Of a stretch of DNA of 63,338 nt, positions 18,115 to 39,403 are shown one piece after another; the stretch's first letter is position 1, and each line of letters opens with the position of its first letter. The stretch spans positions 1 through 63,338 of the forward strand of contig CASFZJ010000014.1 in the NCBI GenBank assembly GCA_949299165.1, read 5' to 3'. Origin of the DNA: an uncultured bacterium. Its GTDB lineage: Bacteria > Bacillota_I > Bacilli_A > RFN20 > CAG-826. Made by a program: the position numbers and the translations under genes. The notes beneath the pieces are model-generated. The model searched no databases and was not told the origin of the DNA. It saw nothing but the letters and a program-made list of their open reading frames with translations.

Positions 18115-19338
18115 ATGTTAGATGTTTGTAATGAAATTAGAGTAATAAAAAGAGGTTTGCTTCCTTTTGAAAACGTTGAATTTGTTTTTGACCTTTATTT
18201 GCCTCTTATTGGAAATGAAGCAACATTTTTATATTTATTTTTAATGAATAATGTAAAAAATGGCGAATTTAGTGGTAAATTTGGCGATTTAATTAACGCT
18301 TCAAAGATGGAAATGCAAAGTTTTCTATTGGCCAAAAAAACGCTCGAAAGCATTGGTTTATTATCCTTTTATGAAAATAAAAAAGATAATAAATTTTTGT
18401 TAATTGTTAATGATGCATATACGCCAAAAGCATTTTTTACAAATTTAGTGTTGAAAGGCTTATTTATCCAAAATTGTGGTGAAGAAAGAACCAAAAAGAT
18501 TCTTGAAAAATATAACGTTTCGATAAATACCAAAGGTTATAACGATATTTCGGCTAAAATTAATGACACATTTGTGATTGATTTTAACTCGAACTTTGCT
18601 GAACTTGATCAAAAAGAAGATTTAGTTGGCTTAAATAAAAACACCATTAAAGATAGTTTTAGTGATGTAAAATTACTCAATTATCTTAAGAAAAATACTC
18701 AAATTAAGATAAATTCTCTCACAGACGATGAAATTGATTTTATTCATAAAGTTGCAACATTATATGGAATGAAAGAAAAAGATGTTGGCGGACTAGTTGC
18801 GGATTGTTTTATTCCTGAAGAACCTGTTGGAAATAAAATTGATCGCAATAAACTTAGAAGAAACGCAAAAACGTATGTTAGAAGTTATAAAATTTCTAAA
18901 AATAAAACAGATAGCAAAACATTCATTAATTCAACAAGTGATATTGCAAATCTTGTTAATATGTATGAATCAATTTCGCCACGTAAATTCTTAATGTCTA
19001 AGCAAAACGATGTTGAACCAAGCGATGCTGATAAAAATTTAATTGAAGAACTTAGCTTTGATATGGGCTTTTCAAATGGAATTATCAACGCACTTTTAGA
19101 CTATGTTTTAAGAACTAAAAATGGTGAATTGTCAAAAAATTATGTTTTGAAAATCGCGACAACATTAATCAGAAAAGGATGTAAAAATACTTTAGATTGC
19201 TTGAATTTATTAAGTTCTCCAAAGCGTGAAAACAAATCCGATTTCGTGAAAACTAATTTTGATAAACCAGAAAATTCCGACAATTCTTTAAATAATCTAG
19301 ATGATGATGAATCGGAAGATTACAAAATTTTCGATTAA
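18115..19338 (+). CDS. dnaB: Bacillus-type replication initiation/helicase-loader protein DnaB (DnaD domains)
   Basis: LYLPLIG.EA..LY, LESIGLL, C-terminal G.INALLDYVL...YV.KIA; paired with dnaI. Confidence 0.8.
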   Translation: MLDVCNEIRVIKRGLLPFENVEFVFDLYLPLIGNEATFLYLFLMNNVKNGEFSGKFGDLINASKMEMQSFLLAKKTLESIGLLSFYENKKDNKFLLIVNDAYTPKAFFTNLVLKGLFIQNCGEERTKKILEKYNVSINTKGYNDISAKINDTFVIDFNSNFAELDQKEDLVGLNKNTIKDSFSDVKLLNYLKKNTQIKINSLTDDEIDFIHKVATLYGMKEKDVGGLVADCFIPEEPVGNKIDRNKLRRNAKTYVRSYKISKNKTDSKTFINSTSDIANLVNMYESISPRKFLMSKQNDVEPSDADKNLIEELSFDMGFSNGIINALLDYVLRTKNGELSKNYVLKIATTLIRKGCKNTLDCLNLLSSPKRENKSDFVKTNFDKPENSDNSLNNLDDDESEDYKIFD

Positions 19339-19354
19339 TAACGAGGAAAAATCT

Positions 19355-20242
19355 ATGGAAAAAGTGAAAATGAATATTAAAATTTCAAATAATGATTTAA
19401 AAGAGTATTCAAATACACTTTATAATGAAATTCAAAATGATAATTTCTTTTCACGTGTAAAGGAAGAAGGTTGGACTGATTTAGAAATTAAGAACAACGT
19501 TACAAAGTTTAAAGAATACTTGTCTGATATGCATAAAGCTGAGGATATTAAAACTTATGAAGATTGCTTGAGAAACAATATGACTTCAAGATTAGTATTA
19601 ATAAGAAACGGAAATATTATTGAAAGAAGTTATGAAACATTAAAACCTTATCAAGATTATGTAGATTATATCTCGAAATTTTTCTATGCAGATTTTGGTG
19701 ATTTACCACACGATGCTTCGTTTTCTAATGTAATCAAAAAAGTTAAAAGCAGTCTTGCTAGATGTTTTAAAGCCGGAAAGTGGGTATATCTAACTGGCGC
19801 TTTAAGAAGTGGTAGAAGCTACGCTGCTCTCGCTATGTTAAATTGGTATTACGAAAAAAATAAAGATAATGAAAAAATTAAATACGCTTTTATTGATTTT
19901 CCATTAAGAATTAAAGAACTTAACGATTTGTATTTTAAAAATAAAACTGATTTTAATGAATTAATCGAAGCTTATTCGAATATCGATTATTTAGTTATTG
20001 ATAATTTTGGGAATGAATATAAAAATGAACTTATTAGAGATGGAATAATTTATCCAATTTTAATGAATAGGGCAGCAAAAAAGAAAATGACTATTTTCAC
20101 AAGTGATTTTTCGATGAGCGATTTGCCATATTTATATAATTTCAAAAAAGGATATCCTGATTTGATGGCCAAAAAGATTATTGAGTTATTGAAAAGTTCA
20201 ATTGGTGAAGAAACAAATTGTGGTAATTTACCAATTTATTAA
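19355..20242 (+). CDS. dnaI: DnaI-like helicase loader with degenerate Walker motifs (start probably MEKVK at 19355)
   Basis: YLTGALRSGRS, LVIDNFGNE, RDGIIYPILMNR, TIFTSD resemble DnaI; follows dnaB. Confidence 0.75.
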   Translation: MEKVKMNIKISNNDLKEYSNTLYNEIQNDNFFSRVKEEGWTDLEIKNNVTKFKEYLSDMHKAEDIKTYEDCLRNNMTSRLVLIRNGNIIERSYETLKPYQDYVDYISKFFYADFGDLPHDASFSNVIKKVKSSLARCFKAGKWVYLTGALRSGRSYAALAMLNWYYEKNKDNEKIKYAFIDFPLRIKELNDLYFKNKTDFNELIEAYSNIDYLVIDNFGNEYKNELIRDGIIYPILMNRAAKKKMTIFTSDFSMSDLPYLYNFKKGYPDLMAKKIIELLKSSIGEETNCGNLPIY

Positions 20243-24219: not shown

Positions 24220-27200
24220 TTAAATCGCCTTCACACTTCCTACGAGGAAACTTCCTCTATTGTTTCTAATTTCATATCTTCCAGTTAATACAAGAATTTT
24301 GTTAGTATCAATTTGGCCAACTGAGGTTGCCCAAATTGAAGAGAAAAATGTTGTATCAACTTCGCCTGTTTCATCAAATATTGTAACAAAAGCCATTGGT
24401 TTTCCTTTGTCTTTGCCGTTTTTTACTACAATATTTTTAATTGAACGCACAATTCCAACAATAGTAGTGGTTTGTCCATTAATTAAATTTCCAATTTCAG
24501 TTCTTTTTAGGTTCTTGAGTTCTTCAGGAAGATGATTGAGTGGAGAATCACTAATCATAACGCCAAGAGCAGCGCATTCATTATCAAGTCTCTCCATTGG
24601 GTCATCAATACAATCTGGAATACGATATTCCATACCAAAGTCATTTAATAATTTTCCTTCTTGTGCCTTAACAATGTTTGCATATTGTATAGCGTTAGGA
24701 ATCGACATTTTTAATGCTTTTCTGTTTGAATAGAGAGTATCAAAAGCGCCAGCGTCAATTAATTTAGATAAGATTGTATCGGAAATTTTATCTTCTGAAT
24801 AAGTCATTCTCACTACAAAATTGATGAAAGATTCAAATTTTCCATTTTCTTCTCGTTCTTTTAAAATCGCAAGAACTGTTTTTGTTTGAAGTCCGCTAAT
24901 GCCAAGAAGTGGCATAAGTAAGCCATTTTCCCGCATTTCAAAACGAATGGTAGATTCGTTGATATTAGGTAAAAAGACTTTTAAATTCGAGCGACGAATT
25001 TCAGCAAGATATCTTGAAAATTTAGTATCGTTGCTTCCATATTGTTGATCTAAAATTGCACAATAAAATTCAATTGGATAATTTGCTTTAAGATATGCTT
25101 CTTTACATGCAATCATTGCGTAGCAGACAGCATGAGATTTATTAAAACCATAGTTAGCAAATTTTAAGATTTGTTCAAAAAGAGTGTTGGCTTCAACTCC
25201 ATTATGCCCATTTTTAACGCTTCCTTTAATGAATTTTTGTTTCATTTCAAGAAGTTCGTGACGATCTTTTTTACTGATTGCTTTTCTAAATATATCGGCT
25301 TCACTAAATGTAAAAGAAGCGTAAGCCTGAGCAATTTGCATAATTTGTTCTTGATAAACAATAATTCCATAAGTTTCTTTTAAGATAGGTTCGAGTGTTT
25401 TTGAAAGATAAGTTATTCTTTCTTGACCATGCTTTCTTCTCGAAAAAGAAGGAATAAATTGCATTGGACCAGGTCTATCTAAAGAAATAGTTGCAACAAC
25501 ATCTAAAAATGAAGATGGCTTAATGTTAACAATTGCATTATATGCAGCACTTGTATCGAGTTGGAAAATGCCCATTGTTTTAAATTCGCTAATTAATTTA
25601 AAAATTTCAGGAGTGCCATATGGTATTTCTTCCATTTTTAAGTGAGTTTTGCGGGTTTTTTCAATAATTTTAAGGCAATTATCGATAACTGTTAAGTTCG
25701 ATAAACCTAAAATATCCATTTTAAGAAAGCCTTGTTTTTCAAGATAATTTTTTTCATATTGAGTAATTAATTCTTGTTCGCCTTCATAATCAATAGGAAT
25801 GTGATCGAACAATTCGTCGTTATTTAAAATGACTCCAGCTGCGTGTAAACCTCTTTGACGAGGCAATCCTTCAATATAATGTGCTTTGTCAAAAATGAAT
25901 TTAAAATCTATATCACTATCAACTGCATTTTTAAAAGCAGGGATATTTTCATAAGCATAATCTAAAGAGAAATTTTTACTATTTTCATCTTTAAAATTAT
26001 TTGGGATTGTTTTAGAAAGTTCTCCAATAAAAGAAGCAGGGAAGCCATAAACTCTTCCAACGTCTCTTAAAGCTTGTTTTGCTGCAATTGTTTGAAATGC
26101 GCAGACTCTGGCGACTTTCTTAAAGCCATATTTATCGATTAAATAGCGGATAACTTCTTCTCTTCTAACATCAGAAATATCAATATCAATATCAGGCAAA
26201 GAATTTCTTTTAGCATTTAAAAATCTTTCAAAAAGAAGGTTATATTTAATCGGGTCAACATCTGTTATTCCTAGGCAATAGGAAATTAAACTGCCGGCAG
26301 CAGATCCTCTTCCTGGACCAACTGGAATGTTGTTGTTTTTAGCAAAATTAACATAATCTTGAACAACTAAGAAGTAATTAATATAACCGAGTTTTTTAAT
26401 TGTTTGATATTCGTAATTTAGCCTATTTTTATAAACAGGATTATTCAAATCAACGCCAAGTTTATTAGCACCTTTTTTGATTAAATCTACAAAATAATCT
26501 CTTGTTTCATCATCGCTTTTATCAAGATAATGAATTAATTCACCACGTTTTTCGTTGAAATTAAATTCAATTAAGTTTTTAATTTTTTCGCAATCTTTAA
26601 GTTCAAGTGGGGTATAAAATTTTAATATTTCTTCTTTTGTTTTGAAAAAATAGTGTGAATCAAGTGGATTTGTATTTTGTTCGATTGTAGTGTTAAGCCT
26701 AATTGCGTCTAATATGTTTATAACGATTGCATCTTCTTTTTTTAAATATCTAATATAAGGAAATGCGATGGTTTCGTAGTTATATTTAATAGCAAAATCA
26801 CGAATTAAATTTACATGACTTATTTGTTCTTTTTGGTAGACTTCTATACCTATGAAAAGGTGCGTGAAAACTTTTGAGAGTTTTAACATTTGGAGTCTTA
26901 AATTGTCATTTACTTGGTTAAATATTTCATTATAACCGATAGGTAAAACACATATTAAACCCTCGATATAAGGCAAAATCTCTGCAAAACTCAACTCTTT
27001 TCCTAAATTCTTTTCACGTGAAATAATAGAAGTGATGTGAGAAAGATTTTTGTAACCTGTCTCATTTTGTACAAAAAAAGTGAAAAAATATTTTTCACAT
27101 TTTACGTCCATTCCAATAATTGGAAAGATATTATTTTCTTTAGCGTAGTCAATAAATTCAGGTACGCCATACATTACATCTAAATCGGCAAGGCCAAGCT

Positions 27201-27303
27201 CTTCATATCCGCATTCTTTTGCCATCTTAAAAAGGTTTTTGAAAAGAATTCCACTTTTTAAAAAAGAATAGCCGCTGCGAATATGAAGAGGAATGAAAGC
27301 CAT
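24220..27303 (-). CDS. dnaE: DNA polymerase III alpha subunit
   Basis: GPGRGSAAGS, FERFLN, PDIDID, HAAG, YGFNKSHA. Confidence 0.97.
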   Translation of the reverse strand: MAFIPLHIRSGYSFLKSGILFKNLFKMAKECGYEELGLADLDVMYGVPEFIDYAKENNIFPIIGMDVKCEKYFFTFFVQNETGYKNLSHITSIISREKNLGKELSFAEILPYIEGLICVLPIGYNEIFNQVNDNLRLQMLKLSKVFTHLFIGIEVYQKEQISHVNLIRDFAIKYNYETIAFPYIRYLKKEDAIVINILDAIRLNTTIEQNTNPLDSHYFFKTKEEILKFYTPLELKDCEKIKNLIEFNFNEKRGELIHYLDKSDDETRDYFVDLIKKGANKLGVDLNNPVYKNRLNYEYQTIKKLGYINYFLVVQDYVNFAKNNNIPVGPGRGSAAGSLISYCLGITDVDPIKYNLLFERFLNAKRNSLPDIDIDISDVRREEVIRYLIDKYGFKKVARVCAFQTIAAKQALRDVGRVYGFPASFIGELSKTIPNNFKDENSKNFSLDYAYENIPAFKNAVDSDIDFKFIFDKAHYIEGLPRQRGLHAAGVILNNDELFDHIPIDYEGEQELITQYEKNYLEKQGFLKMDILGLSNLTVIDNCLKIIEKTRKTHLKMEEIPYGTPEIFKLISEFKTMGIFQLDTSAAYNAIVNIKPSSFLDVVATISLDRPGPMQFIPSFSRRKHGQERITYLSKTLEPILKETYGIIVYQEQIMQIAQAYASFTFSEADIFRKAISKKDRHELLEMKQKFIKGSVKNGHNGVEANTLFEQILKFANYGFNKSHAVCYAMIACKEAYLKANYPIEFYCAILDQQYGSNDTKFSRYLAEIRRSNLKVFLPNINESTIRFEMRENGLLMPLLGISGLQTKTVLAILKEREENGKFESFINFVVRMTYSEDKISDTILSKLIDAGAFDTLYSNRKALKMSIPNAIQYANIVKAQEGKLLNDFGMEYRIPDCIDDPMERLDNECAALGVMISDSPLNHLPEELKNLKRTEIGNLINGQTTTIVGIVRSIKNIVVKNGKDKGKPMAFVTIFDETGEVDTTFFSSIWATSVGQIDTNKILVLTGRYEIRNNRGSFLVGSVKAI

Positions 27304-28322: not shown

Positions 28323-29519
28323 TTATTTTAAGCAGATATTGTAAGCATCACGCGCAATCATAACCTCTTCATCAGTTGGAATGACTACAACTTTAATTTT
28401 ACTATCTGGAGTTGAGATTAAGCCTTCTTTTCCACCAACCATTTGAGCATTTAATGTAGGATCATAGTTAACACCGAGTGCCTCTTTAATGTTATTTAAG
28501 GCGACTTCTCTATAATCTGGAGCATTTTCGCCAATTCCTGCAGAGAAGATGATTAAGTCACATCCACCAAGTCTAACATAATATTGACCAATGAAATCAG
28601 CAACTCTTCTTGCCCAAAGTTTCATTGCAAGAATAGCGTGTTTATCACCTTTTCTAGCTGCGTCTTCAACATCTCTTGAGTCATTTGAGATACCACTAAC
28701 GCCCAAAAGTCCGCTTTTTTTGTTCATTTCTTGGAAGATTGTTTCATTGTCTTTACCACTCATTGCAACAATTTGATAATAAACACTTGGGTCCATATCG
28801 CCAGTTCTTGAATTCATCATAATTCCACCAAGTGGAGTAAGTCCCATGGATGTTGCAACACATTTGCCATTTTTAGTAGCAGTGATAGAAGCTCCACTTC
28901 CAAGGTGACAAATAATCATTCTCTTATCTTTTGCTTCAGGAATATATTTTTCGCCAACTTCACTTAAATATTTGTGCGATGTGCCATGAGCTCCATATCT
29001 TCTAATATTATATTTTTCGGTATATTCATATGGAATTGGGTATGTGTAATCTTCTTCTTCCATTGTTTGATGGAATGCGGTATCAAAAACAGCAACTTGT
29101 GGGACATTTGGTAAAACTTTTTTGAAAGCTTCATATCCGGTTAAATGTGCTTTATTATGAAGTGGAGCAAGTGGAATTAAACTCGCAACTTTATTTACAG
29201 TATCTTCGTTCCATAAAACGCTATGTGAGAAATAGCTTCCACCTTGAACAACTCTATGTCCAACAGCTTTAATTTCATCTAAATGTGAAATAACTTTCTT
29301 TTCAAGCATTCCTTTGACAACTATATCAACAGCAACAGCGTGATCTTGAACAGGTAAAACTTTTGTATCTTTTGTGCCATCATATTTGATAGTAAAAATA
29401 CCATCATCATGGCCAATTCTTTCAACAATTCCTGAGCAGAGAACTTTTTCTTCAGGCATTTCATATAATTTGAATTTAACACTGCTAGATCCACAGTTGA
29501 CTGACATTACTTTTGACAT
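28323..29519 (-). CDS. ackA: Acetate kinase
   Basis: NCGSSSVK, GHRVVQGG, APLHN, FDTAFH, HGTSH, TDEE. Confidence 0.97.
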   Translation of the reverse strand: MSKVMSVNCGSSSVKFKLYEMPEEKVLCSGIVERIGHDDGIFTIKYDGTKDTKVLPVQDHAVAVDIVVKGMLEKKVISHLDEIKAVGHRVVQGGSYFSHSVLWNEDTVNKVASLIPLAPLHNKAHLTGYEAFKKVLPNVPQVAVFDTAFHQTMEEEDYTYPIPYEYTEKYNIRRYGAHGTSHKYLSEVGEKYIPEAKDKRMIICHLGSGASITATKNGKCVATSMGLTPLGGIMMNSRTGDMDPSVYYQIVAMSGKDNETIFQEMNKKSGLLGVSGISNDSRDVEDAARKGDKHAILAMKLWARRVADFIGQYYVRLGGCDLIIFSAGIGENAPDYREVALNNIKEALGVNYDPTLNAQMVGGKEGLISTPDSKIKVVVIPTDEEVMIARDAYNICLK

Positions 29520-29738
29520 AATAAAAACTCCTCTTTAAATTCCTTTATTATTATAGACATTTCTTCTTAAAAATTTAACTAAGATGTCAAAAATTATTGT
29601 GCCTAATGATGAATAAAAAATGTAAATAAAATGAAAAATTTTCTGTAAAGTTATGAAAGTTTTTAACATTTTTTATTTTCTCTTTAAAAGAGTAAAAATA
29701 CATTTTATAATCAATTTATAAGATTTTGGAGGTAATAT

Positions 29739-31676
29739 ATGGCCTATGGCTTATTATTTGACTATTTAACTGGTCAATGTATCGAAGCTTATAAATATTT
29801 CGGTGCACACTTTGAATCAAGAGAAGTAAAAGAAATAATTTCTATTCCGCTAAAAAAAGACCCTTCAAGAACTAAAAAAAGTTCAAGAAAAAAGTTAATT
29901 GAAGGCGTTGTATTTAGACTTTATGCTCCTTGTGCCACGGATGTTAGTGTAATTGGCGATTGGAACAATTGGGATCCTGGTATTCACAAGATGAATAAAG
30001 TCGATGAATCAGGCGTTTTTGAGATTTTTATTGAAGGTCTTCACAATTATTCTTTCTATAAATATCATTTCAAAAATGCTCGTGGAGAATATGTCGACAA
30101 AGCAGATCCATTTGCATTTTTAAGTGAATATCGTCCTGGCTCTTGCTCAAGACTATTCAATATCAATGGATTTATTTGGCATGATGCGCCATATCTTAAA
30201 CAACGTTCAAGAAATTTTGATGCGCCAATGAGCATTTATGAAATGCATCTTGGAAGTCGGAGAGGAAAAGTTGACGGCAGAAATCTCTCTTACGAAGAAA
30301 TTGCCGATTATCTCATTCCTTATTTAAAAGAAACTGGATTTACTCATATTGAAATTATGCCTATTACTCAATATCCATTCGATGGAAGTTGGGGATATCA
30401 AGCAACTGGTTTCTATAGTGTTGATTCACGTTATGGAAATCCGATGCAACTTATGAGTTTTGTTGATAGAATGCACCAAGCTGGAATTGGAGTTATCTTA
30501 GATTTTGCGCCGGTACATTTTGCTACAGATCCTTGGGCACTAAAAGATTTTGATGGAACACCAATGTATGAATATGGAAATGAACATATGTATTCACCTT
30601 GGGGAAGTTGTCAATTTGACTTAGGAAAAGATCCTGTTAGAAGTTTCCTTATGAGCGCCATGAGATATTTTGTTGATTATTTCCATTTTGATGGAATCAG
30701 AGTTGATGCTGTTAGCAACATCGTTTATTGGGATGGAAATAAAAACAATGGTGAAAACACAGGTGCCACCGAATTTATTAGAAGACTTAATGGAAAAATG
30801 CATTATGCTGATCAATCAGTTATGATGATTGCTGAAGATTCAACGGATTTCCCAGGAGTTACCAAACCACTTGAATATGGCGGACTCGGATTTGACTACA
30901 AATGGGATCTTGGTTGGATGAATGATACATTAAAATATTACGCATTAGATCCAATTTACAAAAAGTACGACCATAACAAACTCACATTCTCAATGGCTTA
31001 TTTCTTCAGTGAAAACTTCCTCTTACCATTATCACATGATGAAGTTGTTCATGGAAAAGGCACTATTTTGAACAAAATGTGGGGTGATTATGACCAAAAA
31101 TTTGCTTTAGTTAGAAATTTATATACTTATCAATTCGCTCATCCAGGTAAAAAACTCAATTTTATGGGTAATGAACTTGCAAGTTGGGATGAGTGGAACG
31201 AAACAAAGTCTTTACCTTGGGAACTTAAACGTTTCCCAAAACATGATAGTGTTTCACGTCTTGTGAGAGATTTAAATTTAATTTATCGCAAAGAAAGTGC
31301 AATGCATTATGAAGAATATAACCCAGTTCATTTTAATTGGTTAATGGTTGATAACAAAAACGATAGTGTCTTCGCTTTTGAAAGAAGAGTCGGAGATTCT
31401 CACCTCGTTTTCATCTTTAATATGACACCAAATTATTATGAAAGTTATGACATTGGAATCACAAGAGAAGGCACATATACTGAAATCTTTAATTCCGATA
31501 AAGATGTATATGGAGGTAGCAATGCCTATAATGGACTCGATGTCATGTCTTATTATTGGGGACCAGAAAACAAACCACACAAAATTAGCGTAAAAATCGC
31601 GCCATTTGCAGCAATGATTTTCAAATATGCTCATAAAAATGGTGAAGAAATAAAAGAAAAAAAGGAAGGTAAATAG
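29739..31676 (+). CDS. glgB: 1,4-alpha-glucan branching enzyme (GH13); contains CGG at a conserved Trp
   Basis: GSWGYQ, DGIRVDAV, IAEDST, LSHDEVVHGK, HPGKKLNFMG. Confidence 0.96.
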   Translation: MAYGLLFDYLTGQCIEAYKYFGAHFESREVKEIISIPLKKDPSRTKKSSRKKLIEGVVFRLYAPCATDVSVIGDWNNWDPGIHKMNKVDESGVFEIFIEGLHNYSFYKYHFKNARGEYVDKADPFAFLSEYRPGSCSRLFNINGFIWHDAPYLKQRSRNFDAPMSIYEMHLGSRRGKVDGRNLSYEEIADYLIPYLKETGFTHIEIMPITQYPFDGSWGYQATGFYSVDSRYGNPMQLMSFVDRMHQAGIGVILDFAPVHFATDPWALKDFDGTPMYEYGNEHMYSPWGSCQFDLGKDPVRSFLMSAMRYFVDYFHFDGIRVDAVSNIVYWDGNKNNGENTGATEFIRRLNGKMHYADQSVMMIAEDSTDFPGVTKPLEYGGLGFDYKWDLGWMNDTLKYYALDPIYKKYDHNKLTFSMAYFFSENFLLPLSHDEVVHGKGTILNKMWGDYDQKFALVRNLYTYQFAHPGKKLNFMGNELASWDEWNETKSLPWELKRFPKHDSVSRLVRDLNLIYRKESAMHYEEYNPVHFNWLMVDNKNDSVFAFERRVGDSHLVFIFNMTPNYYESYDIGITREGTYTEIFNSDKDVYGGSNAYNGLDVMSYYWGPENKPHKISVKIAPFAAMIFKYAHKNGEEIKEKKEGK

Positions 31677-34094
31677 ATGATTTTTTCAAATAAAGACGAG
31701 TTTGCAAAAGAATTTAAATCAAGAATGTCTGCAAAATATGGACGTTCTCCATCTGATGCACACGTGCTCGAAAAATATGATATTCTTGGTGAAATGGTTA
31801 GAGATTATGCCGGCTACAACTGGCGTAAAACCCACGAATATTTAAATAACACACACTCAAAACAATTGATTTATTTCTCAATGGAATTTTTAATTGGTCG
31901 TTTACTTACAAATAACATGATGAACCTTGGAATTTATGATATTTGTAAAGATGGCTTAAGTGAACTTGGAATTGATATTGGTGAACTTGAAGATATGGAA
32001 GCTGATGCTGGACTTGGAAATGGAGGTCTTGGTAGACTTGCAGCTTGTTTCTTAGATTCGATCGCTTCACTTGGATATCCAGGAAATGGGAACTGCATTA
32101 GATATGAATATGGTTTTTTCAAGCAAAAAATTGTTGATGAAAAACAAATAGAATTACCAGATCAATGGCTACAAAATGGTTATGTTTGGGAAGTTAGAAA
32201 ACCAAAACATTCAGTTGAAGTTAGCTTTTATGGAAATGCTGAAACTTTCTTAAAACCAAATGGCGATTATGGAATTAGAACAGTAAATTCGACAAAAATC
32301 ACAGCGTGCCCATATGATGTTTCAGTAGTTGGTTATAAAAATGGAGTTGCAAACAATTTAAGACTTTGGAAAGCTCAACCAAGTGAACAAAATTTCCCAT
32401 ATAACATTTCTTTTGATGAATATTTAAATCAAATTAATGAACTTTGTCATGGACTTTATCCAGATGATACTACAGAACATGGCAAACTCCTTAGACTTAG
32501 ACAACAATATTTCTTCGTTAGTGCAGGACTTCAAAGTGCCATTAGAGGATTTATTCGTTTAGGTGGAGATTTACATAAATTCTACGAAAGTTATGTTTTC
32601 CAACTCAACGATACACATCCAATTTTAGCTATTCCTGAACTCATGAGATTACTCATGGATGAACATGGATTTGGATGGGATGAAGCTTGGGAACAAGTTA
32701 CAAAATGTATTGCTTACACAAACCACACAGTCATGCCAGAAGCTCTCGAAAAATGGCCAATTCAATATATTCAACAATTAATGCCACGTTGTTACATGAT
32801 TATTGAAGAAATCAATCGTCGTACACTTATTTGGATGAATCAAAATGGAGTAAGTGAAGGTGAAATGAACAACATGCAAATAATTAAAGATGGCATGGTA
32901 AGAATGACAAATCTTGCGATTTTCACATGTTACAGTGTAAACGGGGTTGCTGCTCTTCATACAAATATTTTAAAGAAAGAAACATTTAAAGATTTCTATA
33001 AATATTTCCCAGAAAAATTTAATAACAAAACAAATGGTGTCACTCATAGAAGATGGCTCATGTACTCTAATCCAGAACTCGCTAAATTAATTTCATCAAA
33101 AATTGGTGGTTCTTGGATTACAAATCCTGATGATTTAGAAAAATTACTCAAATATCAAGATGATAGAGAAACACTTGAAGCTTTAAGAAAAGTTAAGCAC
33201 AACAACAAGATTAAACTTGCTAACTTTATTGAGAAAAATTATGGAATTAAAATTGATACTCACTCAATAATCGATACTCAAATTAAGAGACTTCATGCTT
33301 ATAAGAGACAACTTTTAAATGTTTTCAGAATAATGCATTATTATTTTGAATTTAAAACAAATCCAGATTTTAAAATGGTGCCACATACGTTCATTTTTGG
33401 TGCCAAAGCTGCCCCAAGTTATGTTTTCGCAAAAGAAATCATTACACTTATTAATTCAGTAGCTAATGTTATCAATAATGATCCAAATGTTAACAAATTT
33501 ATGAAAGTTGTTTTCATGGAAAACTATGGTGTTTCACTTGCTGAACTCATTATTCCTGCAACTGACATTTCTGAACAAATTTCAACTGCTGGTAAAGAAG
33601 CTAGTGGTACAAGTAACATGAAATTTATGATGAATGGTGGATTAACTCTTGGAACTCTAGATGGAGCTAACGTTGAAATTAACGAAAGAGTCGGAGATGA
33701 TAATAGCTTTATCTTTGGTTTAAAAGTCGCCGATATCGAACAAATCAAGAAGAGTGGAATGTACAATCCTTGGGATATGTACAATAGAGATCCAAACATC
33801 AGAAGAATTTTAGATAGTTTATTTAATGGTCCATGGTGTGAAGGAATTCATGATAGATTTAGAGGAATCTTTGATGAAATTATGAATCATGGTGATGAAT
33901 ATTTTATCCTTATGGATTTCCAAGCTTATCTTGACGAATCTAAAAAAATTGAAAACTATTATAAAAATAGACAATCTTGGACTAAGAGCTGCTTAATCAA
34001 TATTGCAAAGAGTGGTTACTTCTCAAGCGATAGAACAATTGAGCAATATAATAAAGATATTTGGCACCTCAAGAAAATTAAATTTGATAAATAG
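31677..34094 (+). CDS. glgP: Glycogen/maltodextrin phosphorylase (GT35)
   Basis: GLGNGGLGRLAAC, QLNDTHP, KRLHAYKRQ, EASGTSNMK. Confidence 0.97.
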   Translation: MIFSNKDEFAKEFKSRMSAKYGRSPSDAHVLEKYDILGEMVRDYAGYNWRKTHEYLNNTHSKQLIYFSMEFLIGRLLTNNMMNLGIYDICKDGLSELGIDIGELEDMEADAGLGNGGLGRLAACFLDSIASLGYPGNGNCIRYEYGFFKQKIVDEKQIELPDQWLQNGYVWEVRKPKHSVEVSFYGNAETFLKPNGDYGIRTVNSTKITACPYDVSVVGYKNGVANNLRLWKAQPSEQNFPYNISFDEYLNQINELCHGLYPDDTTEHGKLLRLRQQYFFVSAGLQSAIRGFIRLGGDLHKFYESYVFQLNDTHPILAIPELMRLLMDEHGFGWDEAWEQVTKCIAYTNHTVMPEALEKWPIQYIQQLMPRCYMIIEEINRRTLIWMNQNGVSEGEMNNMQIIKDGMVRMTNLAIFTCYSVNGVAALHTNILKKETFKDFYKYFPEKFNNKTNGVTHRRWLMYSNPELAKLISSKIGGSWITNPDDLEKLLKYQDDRETLEALRKVKHNNKIKLANFIEKNYGIKIDTHSIIDTQIKRLHAYKRQLLNVFRIMHYYFEFKTNPDFKMVPHTFIFGAKAAPSYVFAKEIITLINSVANVINNDPNVNKFMKVVFMENYGVSLAELIIPATDISEQISTAGKEASGTSNMKFMMNGGLTLGTLDGANVEINERVGDDNSFIFGLKVADIEQIKKSGMYNPWDMYNRDPNIRRILDSLFNGPWCEGIHDRFRGIFDEIMNHGDEYFILMDFQAYLDESKKIENYYKNRQSWTKSCLINIAKSGYFSSDRTIEQYNKDIWHLKKIKFDK

Positions 34095-34995: not shown

Positions 34996-35499
34996 TTAAG
35001 ATTTTAATCTCTTTTTAATAAAGTTTTCAATTTCAGAAACGTCCATTTTTAAAGAAATCGCCATCTCTTGAAATATATTATTTTTAATTTCTCTTAAGAA
35101 ATTTTCGTCGGTAAAAGATAAAACTTTATTGTTATTTTCTAATTCAATTTTTTTAGACTCAATAGATTTTATTAATTTAAAAACATCTGTCGGCCCACCT
35201 TTATCGTAAAGTTCACGGAATTTTGCTTTCCTAATTTTAGGATTTGCTATCCAAATTTCTTCAATTGATGGAATTGAATCTATTAATTTTAAAATTTCTC
35301 TTTTAGTTAAAATTGCTCGAATAATGCCAACTCGATCAGCAGGAATAAAATATTTAGTTACTTGATTGTCTAAAGAAGAATATGGGACAAGCACGTAATA
35401 ATCGTTTTTCCCCATACCAACATCATAATCAAAAAGTATGTCAATTATCTTGCATACCTGTCCTTTTTTATTGATAACTAAATCATCTTTATTGAACAT
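34996..35499 (-). CDS. CarD-like (CarD_CdnL_TRCF) transcription regulator
   Basis: MF.K.D.V....G.VC.I N-terminus, YYVL.P, C-terminal helical region. Confidence 0.7.
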   Translation of the reverse strand: MFNKDDLVINKKGQVCKIIDILFDYDVGMGKNDYYVLVPYSSLDNQVTKYFIPADRVGIIRAILTKREILKLIDSIPSIEEIWIANPKIRKAKFRELYDKGGPTDVFKLIKSIESKKIELENNNKVLSFTDENFLREIKNNIFQEMAISLKMDVSEIENFIKKRLKS

Positions 35500-35653
35500 T
35501 TTAAATCTTCCAAAGTCATTATAGCATTTAAAAAAAATTAAAACTAGTTAAAAATTCCGATAATAGTCGTATTTTTTATAAGGAAATAGGTTGGAAATTT
35601 ATAGATATGGACACCTAGAATAAAAAAATTTCGAAAAATTTTTAAAAATAATA

Positions 35654-35682
35654 TTGCATAAAATTTTTTTCCTTGATATAGT
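35654..35682 (+). promoter_or_regulatory. Promoter of tRNA-Asp/Phe
   Basis: TTGCAT-17 nt-TATAGT with extended TG. Confidence 0.65.
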
Positions 35683-35712
35683 TATTAAGCGCGTTCGAAA
35701 CGCACACAAAGC

Positions 35713-35788
35713 GGACCAGTGGTGTAGCGGTTAACATGCCACTCTGTCACAGTGGAGATCGCGAGTTCGATTCTCGTCTGGTCCGCCA
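35713..35788 (+). tRNA. tRNA-Asp(GTC)
   Basis: GGACCAG/CTGGTCC acceptor, loop CTGTCAC, G73, CCA. Confidence 0.97.
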
Positions 35789-35804
35789 ATTATATTGAAG
35801 AGCC

Positions 35805-35880
<76 letters not shown>

Positions 35881-35892
35881 GCTAAGTTTTAT

Positions 35893-35919
35893 AAAGATCC
35901 TATGTTGGGGTCTTTTTTT
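35893..35919 (+). terminator. Terminator after tRNA-Asp/Phe
   Basis: AAAGATCCT..GGGGTCTTT + T-run. Confidence 0.7.
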
Positions 35920-35976
35920 CTGCATTTATTTTGCTTTTTATTTTTATTTAATTTAATCTTTTAACGAGGTGGTTGA

Positions 35977-36879
35977 ATGAAAGATTTGATTATTATTGGA
36001 GCCGGACCTGCCGGGGTATGTGCGGCAATTTACGCTAAAAGAAGCAATTTAGATTTTTTACTTTTTGAAAAGAATTGTATTGGCGGCAATGTCGTTAATG
36101 CTTTCGAAATAGAAAATTATCCTGGTGTTGGAAAAATTGTTGGTAGTGATTTAGCTATTAACTTCATGAATGAACTTGACGCTTTAAACATTGAAGTAAA
36201 TTATGAAGAAATTGTTAAAATTGAGAAAAAAGACTGCTATTTTGTTTTAACAAATGCGGATGGAGTTAATTTTGAAAGCAAAAAAGTTTTACTTGCTTTA
36301 GGTACTAAATCTAGAAGACTTGGTTTAGAAAACGAAGAAAGTTTAATTGGAAGAGGTGTTTCTTTCTGCGCTACTTGTGATGGAGCGTTTTATAAAGATA
36401 AAATAACCATGGTTGTAGGCGGAGGCAATAGTGCCTTAACAGAAGCTCAATATCTCGCTAAAATTGCAAAAAAAGTCTATATAATTACTAGACATGAGTT
36501 AAAAGGCGCTAAAAAAGAAATTGAAGCTTTAAATAACTATCCAAATATTAAAGTTATTGAATTTAAGCAAATTAGAACTCTTTTAACCGAAAATGACAAA
36601 TTAACTGGTGTTGTGCTTTTTGATACAAATACTAAAGAAGAGATGTCAATTGCTCTTGATGGAGTCTTTGTTTATATAGGGCAAGATACAATGAGTGGAT
36701 TAGTAAAAGATTTAAATGTAACTGACGAAAGAGGTTTTATCAAAACTAATTCAAGTTTTGAAACTGATTTTAACGGACTTTATGCAGTTGGTGATTGTAT
36801 TGTAAAAGAAGTAAGACAAGTTGCAAGTGCAGTAGGCGATGCTGCAACCGCAATGCATTTTATCGAAAAAAGTTTATAA
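35977..36879 (+). CDS. trxB: Thioredoxin reductase
   Basis: GAGPAG, ENYPG, GVSFCATCDG, GGGNSA, AVGD. Confidence 0.92.
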   Translation: MKDLIIIGAGPAGVCAAIYAKRSNLDFLLFEKNCIGGNVVNAFEIENYPGVGKIVGSDLAINFMNELDALNIEVNYEEIVKIEKKDCYFVLTNADGVNFESKKVLLALGTKSRRLGLENEESLIGRGVSFCATCDGAFYKDKITMVVGGGNSALTEAQYLAKIAKKVYIITRHELKGAKKEIEALNNYPNIKVIEFKQIRTLLTENDKLTGVVLFDTNTKEEMSIALDGVFVYIGQDTMSGLVKDLNVTDERGFIKTNSSFETDFNGLYAVGDCIVKEVRQVASAVGDAATAMHFIEKSL

Positions 36880-38119: not shown

Positions 38120-38212
38120 TATTTAAAGTAAAATTTGTTTCTTATATTCTTATTTTCTTGTTGATTTAGATTTTTAAATATTAGAGAATAGTTGCGTTTT
38201 GGGAGAGAGTTT

Positions 38213-39403
38213 ATGGCTATATTACTCTTAATTATTATCTATATTGTATTTATTTCACTTGGATTGCCTGATTCACTTGTTAGCGCCACTTGGCCAGCAG
38301 TTTCACAAAGTTTAGGTATTAGTGAAGATTTCCAAGGAATTTTAACTTTTACTATTTCTTTATGTACGATTATTTCATCATTTTTGACGCCTTTTTTAGT
38401 TAAACATTTAAAAGCTAAAGGTGTTATTATTCTTTCCATTTTATTTACTTGCGTTGGTTTGATTTGTATTTCTTATTCGCCAAATTTTGTTTGCCTTGTT
38501 TTAAGTGGAATTCCGCTTGGCTTAGGTGCAGGAGCAATTGACTCAGCTTTAAATAATTATGTTGCTTTAAATTATAAGGCGATTCATTTAAATTGGCTTC
38601 ACGCTTTTTGGGGAATAGGTGCTTCAATTTCTCCTCTTATTTGTGGTGCATTTTTAACTGATATTAATGGTTGGAGAAATGCTGCGCTATGTCTTGCAAT
38701 AATTCAATCTTTTATACGGTTACTTTGCGTCATTTCAATTAAAGTTTGGAACAAAGCCGAACTTCAATTTGAAAAGCGAGATGAAGGTGAAAAAGTAAGC
38801 GAATCTAAAGGATTTCTTAAAACTTTAAGAATTGCAGGAGTTGTGCCTGCTCTTATTGGCTTCTTTTGCTATATAGCAATTGAACAAACAACTGCACTTT
38901 GGTTTTCCTCAATGTGTGTTTTTGAACTAGGAGTTAACGAAGATCTTGCTGCAACTTGGACCTCATTATTTTACTTTGGCATAATGGGTGGAAGAATTTT
39001 ATCAGGTTTATTCTCGCTCAAAATTAATGACAAGAATTTAATTAGAATAGGACAAGGAGTAATTTTAGTTGGTGCAATCTTAATGTGTCTTACATTCAAT
39101 GTTTATATTTTACCTGTTGGACTTGTTATTATCGGACTTGGATGTGGGCCAGTTTATCCTTCGATAATTCACTCAACTCCAACAAGATTTGGCAAAACAA
39201 ATTCACAATCAGTTATTTCAATTCAAATGGGTTGCTCTTATATTGCAAACGTTACAATCGCTCCATTTTTCGGAATTATTGGTAAAAATACTACTTTTTT
39301 AATTCTTCCTTACGTAGTTTTAGGAATATTAATTATTTTCTTTTTAACTAACGAATTAGTTAATAGATTAGTTAAAAAGAACCAAGTTGAACAAAATGTA
39401 TAG
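38213..39403 (+). CDS. MFS transporter (start probably ATG 38213)
   Basis: About 12 TM; FISLGLPDS, GLGAGAIDSALNNYVA, NWLHAFWG.GA. Confidence 0.9.
   Translation: MAILLLIIIYIVFISLGLPDSLVSATWPAVSQSLGISEDFQGILTFTISLCTIISSFLTPFLVKHLKAKGVIILSILFTCVGLICISYSPNFVCLVLSGIPLGLGAGAIDSALNNYVALNYKAIHLNWLHAFWGIGASISPLICGAFLTDINGWRNAALCLAIIQSFIRLLCVISIKVWNKAELQFEKRDEGEKVSESKGFLKTLRIAGVVPALIGFFCYIAIEQTTALWFSSMCVFELGVNEDLAATWTSLFYFGIMGGRILSGLFSLKINDKNLIRIGQGVILVGAILMCLTFNVYILPVGLVIIGLGCGPVYPSIIHSTPTRFGKTNSQSVISIQMGCSYIANVTIAPFFGIIGKNTTFLILPYVVLGILIIFFLTNELVNRLVKKNQVEQNV

Follow-up and report, generated by a model that had tools for sequence, protein, structure and literature searches.

Reassignment of the arginine (Arg) codon CGG to tryptophan (Trp) was predicted, in a Codetta screen, for a clade within GTDB order RFN20 made up of uncultivated Bacilli (Shulgina and Eddy 2021, eLife, PMC8629427). 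The explanation given there combines a low GC content, the rarity of CGG and a dedicated tRNA(CCG), since a tRNA with the anticodon ICG (I, inosine) reads the other three CGN codons, and the features looked for in a Trp acceptor were G73 and no A20, with A/G1:U72 as support. The prediction was published without experimental confirmation. The lineage was later named Onthovivens (NAR 2026, PMC13092985; preprint 10.64898/2026.05.03.722492), and another preprint of 2026 (10.64898/2026.04.02.715157) re-found already known reassignments across some 2.7 million assemblies. Here we examine the meaning of CGG in a 63,338 nt stretch of DNA (the window) from an uncultured gut bacterium of this order, beginning with glgB, the gene for 1,4-alpha-glucan branching enzyme, which has an in-frame CGG at positions 30258–30260. 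The window is contig C14 (CASFZJ010000014.1) of assembly GCA_949299165.1 (39 contigs, 1,432,224 bases; called G000 below). As argued in the following paragraphs, G000 very probably reads CGG as Trp, because the codon is rare and found at Trp positions, a dedicated Trp-like tRNA(CCG) is present, and no Arg-type reader of CGG was found in the draft assembly.

An initial annotation of the window, made from its letters, had suggested the Trp reading and cited the Codetta report for uncultivated Bacilli, which is correct and concerns order RFN20 (PMC8629427); whether the DNA came from that clade or represented an independent event had been left open. Two public GlgB relatives, with 83% and 78% identity, are named Candidatus Onthovivens sp., and in the first, CGG stands at a Trp column. 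Others are labelled uncultured Bacillales, Mollicutes or Bacilli, and the relatives also include UBA and UMGS metagenome-assembled genomes of the kind current in 2021. Since relatives at 78–83% GlgB identity carry the name Onthovivens, which the cited papers use for the RFN20 clade, G000 most likely belongs to the published clade. The CGG-to-Trp change in Candidatus Onthovivens was already published in 2021, and G000 is a further, well-supported example of it, in an assembly that is probably later than the 2021 screen (the runs containing this DNA are dated 2023). The codon and its new meaning are the same, and G000 shows no difference in kind. Its GC content is 30.0%, against 0.26–0.38 in the description of the clade (PMC8629427), and CGG makes up 4.5 per 10,000 codons of its open reading frames (ORFs) against fewer than 6, a figure based on Pfam-aligned codons and so not strictly comparable. 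Both have a tRNA(CCG) with G73 and without A20, and both retain tRNA-Arg(ACG) for CGU, CGC and CGA.

Three other systems treated in the same paper (PMC8629427) can be compared. Anaerococcus (Clostridia) resembles G000 in its CGG-to-Trp change, its Trp-like tRNA(CCG) and its membership of a low-GC Bacillota lineage, but it belongs to an unrelated class, and CGG was reported to be too rare there for supporting conserved sites to be found, whereas such sites are plentiful in G000. In Absconditabacteria Trp has likewise captured an Arg codon from the CGN box; there, however, CGA is also read as Trp and UGA as glycine, while G000 has a tRNA-Arg(ACG) and its CGA codons align to Arg. A relative with a similarly small, AT-rich genome, Mycoplasma capricolum (Oba et al. 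1991, cited in PMC8629427), has lost its reader of CGG. An unassigned codon of this sort is presumed to be the intermediate stage; in G000, unlike M. capricolum, a dedicated tRNA has taken CGG up again, and the codon is used at 186 sites.

The glgB gene lies on the forward strand at 29739–31676 and encodes a protein of 645 aa that matches GlgB chains in the PDB. Codon 174 (30258–30260) falls on the invariant Trp of the YExHxGSW motif, and this column was examined in 110 GlgB loci (G000, 29 relatives from a genome search and 80 further public loci) and in Escherichia coli structures. TGG is found in 105 of the loci, TTT in four and CGG in one, G000 alone; all four TTT codons belong to the genome-search relatives, the remaining 25 of which have TGG, as do even those relatives whose GlgB is 96% identical. 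The E. coli structures 4lpc and 1m7x have W in the sequence IYEVHLGSW (IYEVHLGSWRRH), opposite IYEMHLGS[CGG]RG of G000. The proposal that CGG here stands in for the Trp of YE.H.GSW is therefore upheld by 105 of the 109 other genes and by E. coli. The distribution of CGG over the rest of the alignment also depends on relatedness. In the 36 loci at least 77% identical to the G000 protein there are 12 CGG codons, ten of them at W columns (those with more than 60% W), none at R and two at variable positions, whereas in the 74 loci below 77% identity CGG is never at a W column and is found dozens of times at conserved R columns.

The same question was put to the whole genome, the assembly of which has an estimated completeness of 98.4%. 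A simple longest-ORF rule gave 1087 non-overlapping ORFs, each 120 aa or longer, covering 86% of the DNA and containing 411,247 codons. CGG occurs in frame 186 times (0.45 per 1000), spread over 162 ORFs, in agreement with the earlier impression that it is very rare; the counts for the other codons are TGG 2462, AGA 9133, CGT 1994, CGA 921, AGG 794 and CGC 604. The ORF products were aligned by tblastn to partly fetched genomes of relatives, hits of at least 35% identity were kept, and the residue facing each codon was tallied. The comparators were G008, a congener (733 kb of about 1.3 Mb), G024, from another family (400 kb), and two members of a neighbouring genus, G119 (354 kb) and G046 (357 kb). 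Against G008, 53 CGG sites could be compared; 33 face W and only two face R, both of these being CGG in G008 as well. The other residues among the seven commonest are Y (7), F (4), A (2), K (2) and Q (1), with two sites beyond these. W was found at 10 of 15 sites against G024, 9 of 17 against G119 and 9 of 13 against G046, with no R in any of the three. Taking G008, G024 and G119 together, 64 of the 186 sites are open to assessment. At 42 of these at least one comparator has W, at 53 the residue is W, Y or F, and Arg codons other than CGG are never opposite them. The initial annotation had named an alignment of CGG mostly to conserved Arg, genome-wide, as the outcome that would speak against it, and the 64 sites show the opposite.

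Trp sites shared by G000 and G008 differ in direction: 34 are CGG in G000 and TGG in G008, and only 11 are the reverse. Because of this asymmetry, the re-use of CGG is further advanced in G000 than in its congener.

No tRNA(CCG) is present in the window, as had been stated; the gene sits on contig C30 of the same assembly (G000:C30:7845-7918, reverse strand, 74 nt), where ARAGORN labels it Arg(CCG). It has the A1:U72 pair, G73, a 7-nt D-loop (AATGGTA, with U20) and a 4-nt variable loop, and so corresponds to the type of tRNA for which the initial annotation had advised a search, with a CCG anticodon, G73 and no A20. Its anticodon is at position 33, as in the tRNA-Trp(CCA) of contig C20 (G000:C20:23885-23958). 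ARAGORN predicted 43 tRNAs in G000, among which there are three ordinary Arg tRNAs (ACG, UCU and CCU), each of 77 nt; neither an Arg-type tRNA(CCG) nor a tRNA(UCG) was found by this program in the 98.4%-complete draft.

Nine further tRNA(CCG) genes were identified, eight in the same genus (G015, G001, G009, G002, G006, G008, G101 and G173) and one in G119. The pattern search over 201 genomes of the family was noisy at two mismatches, returning mostly tRNA-Trp(CCA), and only hits with an intact CTCCGAA loop were used. All ten genes have A/G1:U72 and G73, and lack A20 in the D-loop, while the outgroups G020, G027, G024 and G030 have an Arg-type tRNA(CCG) with a D-loop of the GGATAGAG type. In a tree of the short-arm tRNAs of G000 together with the nine genes, all CCG tRNAs group with Trp(CCA), away from the three Arg tRNAs. 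This suggests that tRNA(CCG) descends from a Trp tRNA, although 74 nt are too short for proof, tRNA(CCG) is only 0.64–0.74 identical to tRNA-Trp(CCA) in pairwise comparison, and the tree does not separate one origin from several. Within the genus, tRNA(CCG) genes diverge fast, with pairwise identities down to about 0.70–0.78 and A/G1:U72 kept in all of them, whereas canonical tRNA-Trp(CCA) genes, which have G1:C72, vary far less. The G000 gene is flanked by an FMN reductase gene and small unknown ORFs, an arrangement common to G015 and G001 only; the flanks are not shared with G009, G002 or G119, and synteny is uninformative as to whether an ancestral Arg tRNA was replaced in place.

These observations fit a mechanism in which a single Trp-tRNA synthetase (TrpRS) would charge tRNA-Trp(CCA) and tRNA(CCG) alike, while the Arg-tRNA synthetase (ArgRS) would ignore tRNA(CCG) because A20 is missing. 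The tRNA-Arg(ACG), deaminated to ICG, would read CGU, CGC and CGA, so that CGG would be left to the CCG tRNA alone and be free to change its meaning. Following the codon capture scheme of Shulgina and Eddy, AT pressure (the genome has 30% GC) would first have pushed CGG to near zero, after which the Arg-type tRNA(CCG), which outgroups still carry, would have been lost. A Trp-family tRNA with the anticodon CCG may then have captured the codon, and CGG would have reappeared through single T-to-C changes at TGG sites.

Several points weigh against the Trp reading. No aligned partner is available for 122 of the 186 CGG sites, the comparators having been only partly fetched, and the ORF set is a crude longest-ORF call with no gene finder behind it. 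Among the 64 assessed sites, 22 face no W in any comparator; at 11 of these the residue is Y or F, and at the others it is mostly something else, a spread that resembles the one seen at TGG controls. The Arg-type tRNA that appears to be absent from G000 could merely be unassembled in a draft of 39 contigs. The tRNA(CCG) retains C35 and G36, which are Arg identity elements, and some charging with Arg is therefore conceivable. TrpRS normally reads A36, and an alignment of this enzyme gave no evidence of a re-tuned anticodon pocket, with just one column (V65 versus A) separating 17 members of the genus from 9 outgroups.

The last two points bear most on the possibility that decoding is ambiguous, with tRNA(CCG) receiving Trp in some cases and Arg in others, or with CGG read inefficiently, as in an intermediate stage of reassignment. 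The retained C35 and G36 are ArgRS determinants, TrpRS shows no clear compensating change, and CGG would account for only 7% of the Trp codons of G000 (186 versus 2462 TGG), as expected if its use were still costly. The published account likewise leaves ambiguity open pending experiment (PMC8629427). Set against this, CGG is found at invariant and structurally important Trp positions such as W174 of GlgB, and in the 64 assessed sites the only Arg codons opposite CGG are themselves CGG, a distribution not easily squared with Arg being inserted often. A20 is, moreover, missing from all ten tRNA(CCG) genes, and ambiguous decoding is considered improbable.

G000 has one TrpRS gene, at C10:15555-16553 (TIGR00233, 359 bits). 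A search with the Pfam family tRNA-synt_1b returned two genes, one of them TrpRS; the other, a frame of 419 aa, is taken from its length to be the Tyr-tRNA synthetase, and the idea of a second TrpRS was rejected on this basis. Within the genus, TrpRS is 66–84% identical, compared with 77–96% for GlgB across much the same genomes.

That CGG still means Arg, with tolerated Trp-to-Arg substitutions or chance producing the observed pattern, is very improbable. Individually, the CGG codons in the MFS, ABC and dnaE genes of the window (described below) are uninformative and leave room for it, but the profile of facing residues over the genome is like that of TGG and unlike that of any Arg codon. Against G008, TGG faces W in 74% of cases, while CGT, AGA and CGA face R in 64%, 65% and 51% (147 of 288) respectively; CGA faces R at 61 of 131 sites in G024, and W is absent from its seven commonest facing residues in both genomes. 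Emission tables were made from every other codon of these alignments, and scoring the pooled residues opposite CGG with them gave log-likelihoods of -134 for W, -352 for Y, -356 for F and -504 for R. The reciprocal comparison gave a consistent picture: the 16 CGG codons of G008 itself (0.10 per 1000 aligned) face W at 11 sites in G000, CGG at two and R at none, whereas the 93 CGG codons of G024 (1.5 per 1000) face R at 50 sites and K at 12, with W not among the seven commonest residues. The pipeline is therefore able to report Arg where Arg is meant, and an Arg-type CGG tRNA was not found in G000. Judged from these alignments, the change in CGG appears to be confined to near relatives of G000, with the outgroups using the codon for Arg.

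Sequencing or assembly errors in TGG codons, which the initial annotation had raised as a finding that would overturn its reading, are an extremely remote explanation. Contigs in Logan, which are assembled contigs and not raw reads, cover the glgB site, one of the six CGG codons of the window. Those of run X1, possibly the sample from which the assembly was made, span 29061–32043 with no differences and a word depth of 13.9. Run X4 comes from a second sample, and its contig spans 29740–30590 at a word depth of 14.6 with one difference; among the 40 best-supported of more than 1000 differences, only that at 30542 falls in this range. Both runs keep CGG at 30258–30260. Other species of the genus, assembled independently, have CGG at other Trp columns of GlgB, and there is a dedicated tRNA(CCG). 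Editing of C to U in the mRNA, which would restore UGG with the genetic code unchanged and should give the same pattern in DNA, has next to no likelihood, as it leaves the conserved Trp-like tRNA(CCG) and the loss of the Arg-type CGG reader unexplained, and we know of no site-specific editing system of this kind in Bacillota.

The contig word depth in Logan rises 10- to 100-fold over tRNA-Asp/tRNA-Phe and tRNA-Lys (35204–36491 and 43576–44200), as is to be expected where other members of the community share conserved tRNA sequences.

Besides that in glgB, five CGG codons occur in frame in the window. The five listed in the initial annotation, glgB included, are all at the positions given, and its warning that a manual scan may be incomplete was justified in that one had been overlooked, at 19313–19315. 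Pfam agrees with the gene names for the MFS, ABC/FtsX, DnaE and GNAT products, and a PDB match also backs GNAT. In the GNAT acetyltransferase (ORF 44027–44488, forward strand), codon 51 (44177–44179) aligns with W, W and L in three homologues and with F in PDB 2fiw, and never with R; these four sequences are the whole comparison, with homologues found in 3 of 30 relatives. The codon had been equated with the W of an RWKE motif, and its aromatic or hydrophobic, non-Arg character holds, while the match is weaker than that motif implied. Codon 176 of the MFS transporter (38717–38719 in ORF 38192–39403, forward strand) lies in a hydrophobic context and corresponds to Leu in the congener G008, which is compatible with Trp without being decisive. 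The codons described at the outset as uninformative are so: codon 323 of the ABC ATPase/FtsX permease fusion (41485–41487 in ORF 40519–43317, forward strand) is in a variable linker region, and codon 791 of dnaE (24931–24933 in ORF 24220–27303, reverse strand) is in a poorly conserved stretch, facing F in G008 and D in G024. The sixth CGG (19313–19315, forward strand) is codon 5 of ORF 19301–20242, an ORF that matches no Pfam family and shares 38 bases with the one before it; because of this overlap the true start of the ORF is possibly further downstream, and the CGG may lie upstream of it.

The tRNA(CCG) found outside the genus raises the question of how often CGG has changed. G119 is a species labelled as another GTDB genus of the same family, and its Trp-like tRNA(CCG) lies at G119:C2:1514-1587. 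Its own CGG codons face W at 9 of 12 sites and R at none, and the Arg-type tRNAs recovered from it by pattern search are only ACG, UCU and CCU. Its congeners G046, G087 and G164 have an Arg-type tRNA(UCG), and a blastn search with the G119 tRNA(CCG) against its five congeners gave no matches. In G046, 58,465 aligned codons included only 6 CGG, opposite R (2), K, A, W and I, and 58 of 70 protein comparisons place G119 nearer to G046 than to G000. The pattern points to one of two histories, a second CGG capture in G119 or a reversion in its congeners. That CGG-to-Trp capture took place more than once, or was reversed, inside one RFN20 family is a possibility that we raise tentatively, and on balance doubt.

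By itself, G000 poses no new question, being a case of a sense-codon reassignment already in print, for which it supplies unusually many supporting sites. Its practical consequence is that gene callers using translation table 11 place Arg at about 7% of the Trp positions of G000, that is, at 186 sites, including W174 in the catalytic domain of GlgB; for Onthovivens-like gut bacteria, predicted proteins, structure models and metaproteomic searches should take CGG as Trp. A second capture in the neighbouring genus would help to order the steps, namely the loss of the Arg reader and then the gain of a Trp-type reader and, if it is independent and unpublished, the family would offer closely related genomes from before, during and after the capture of a sense codon.

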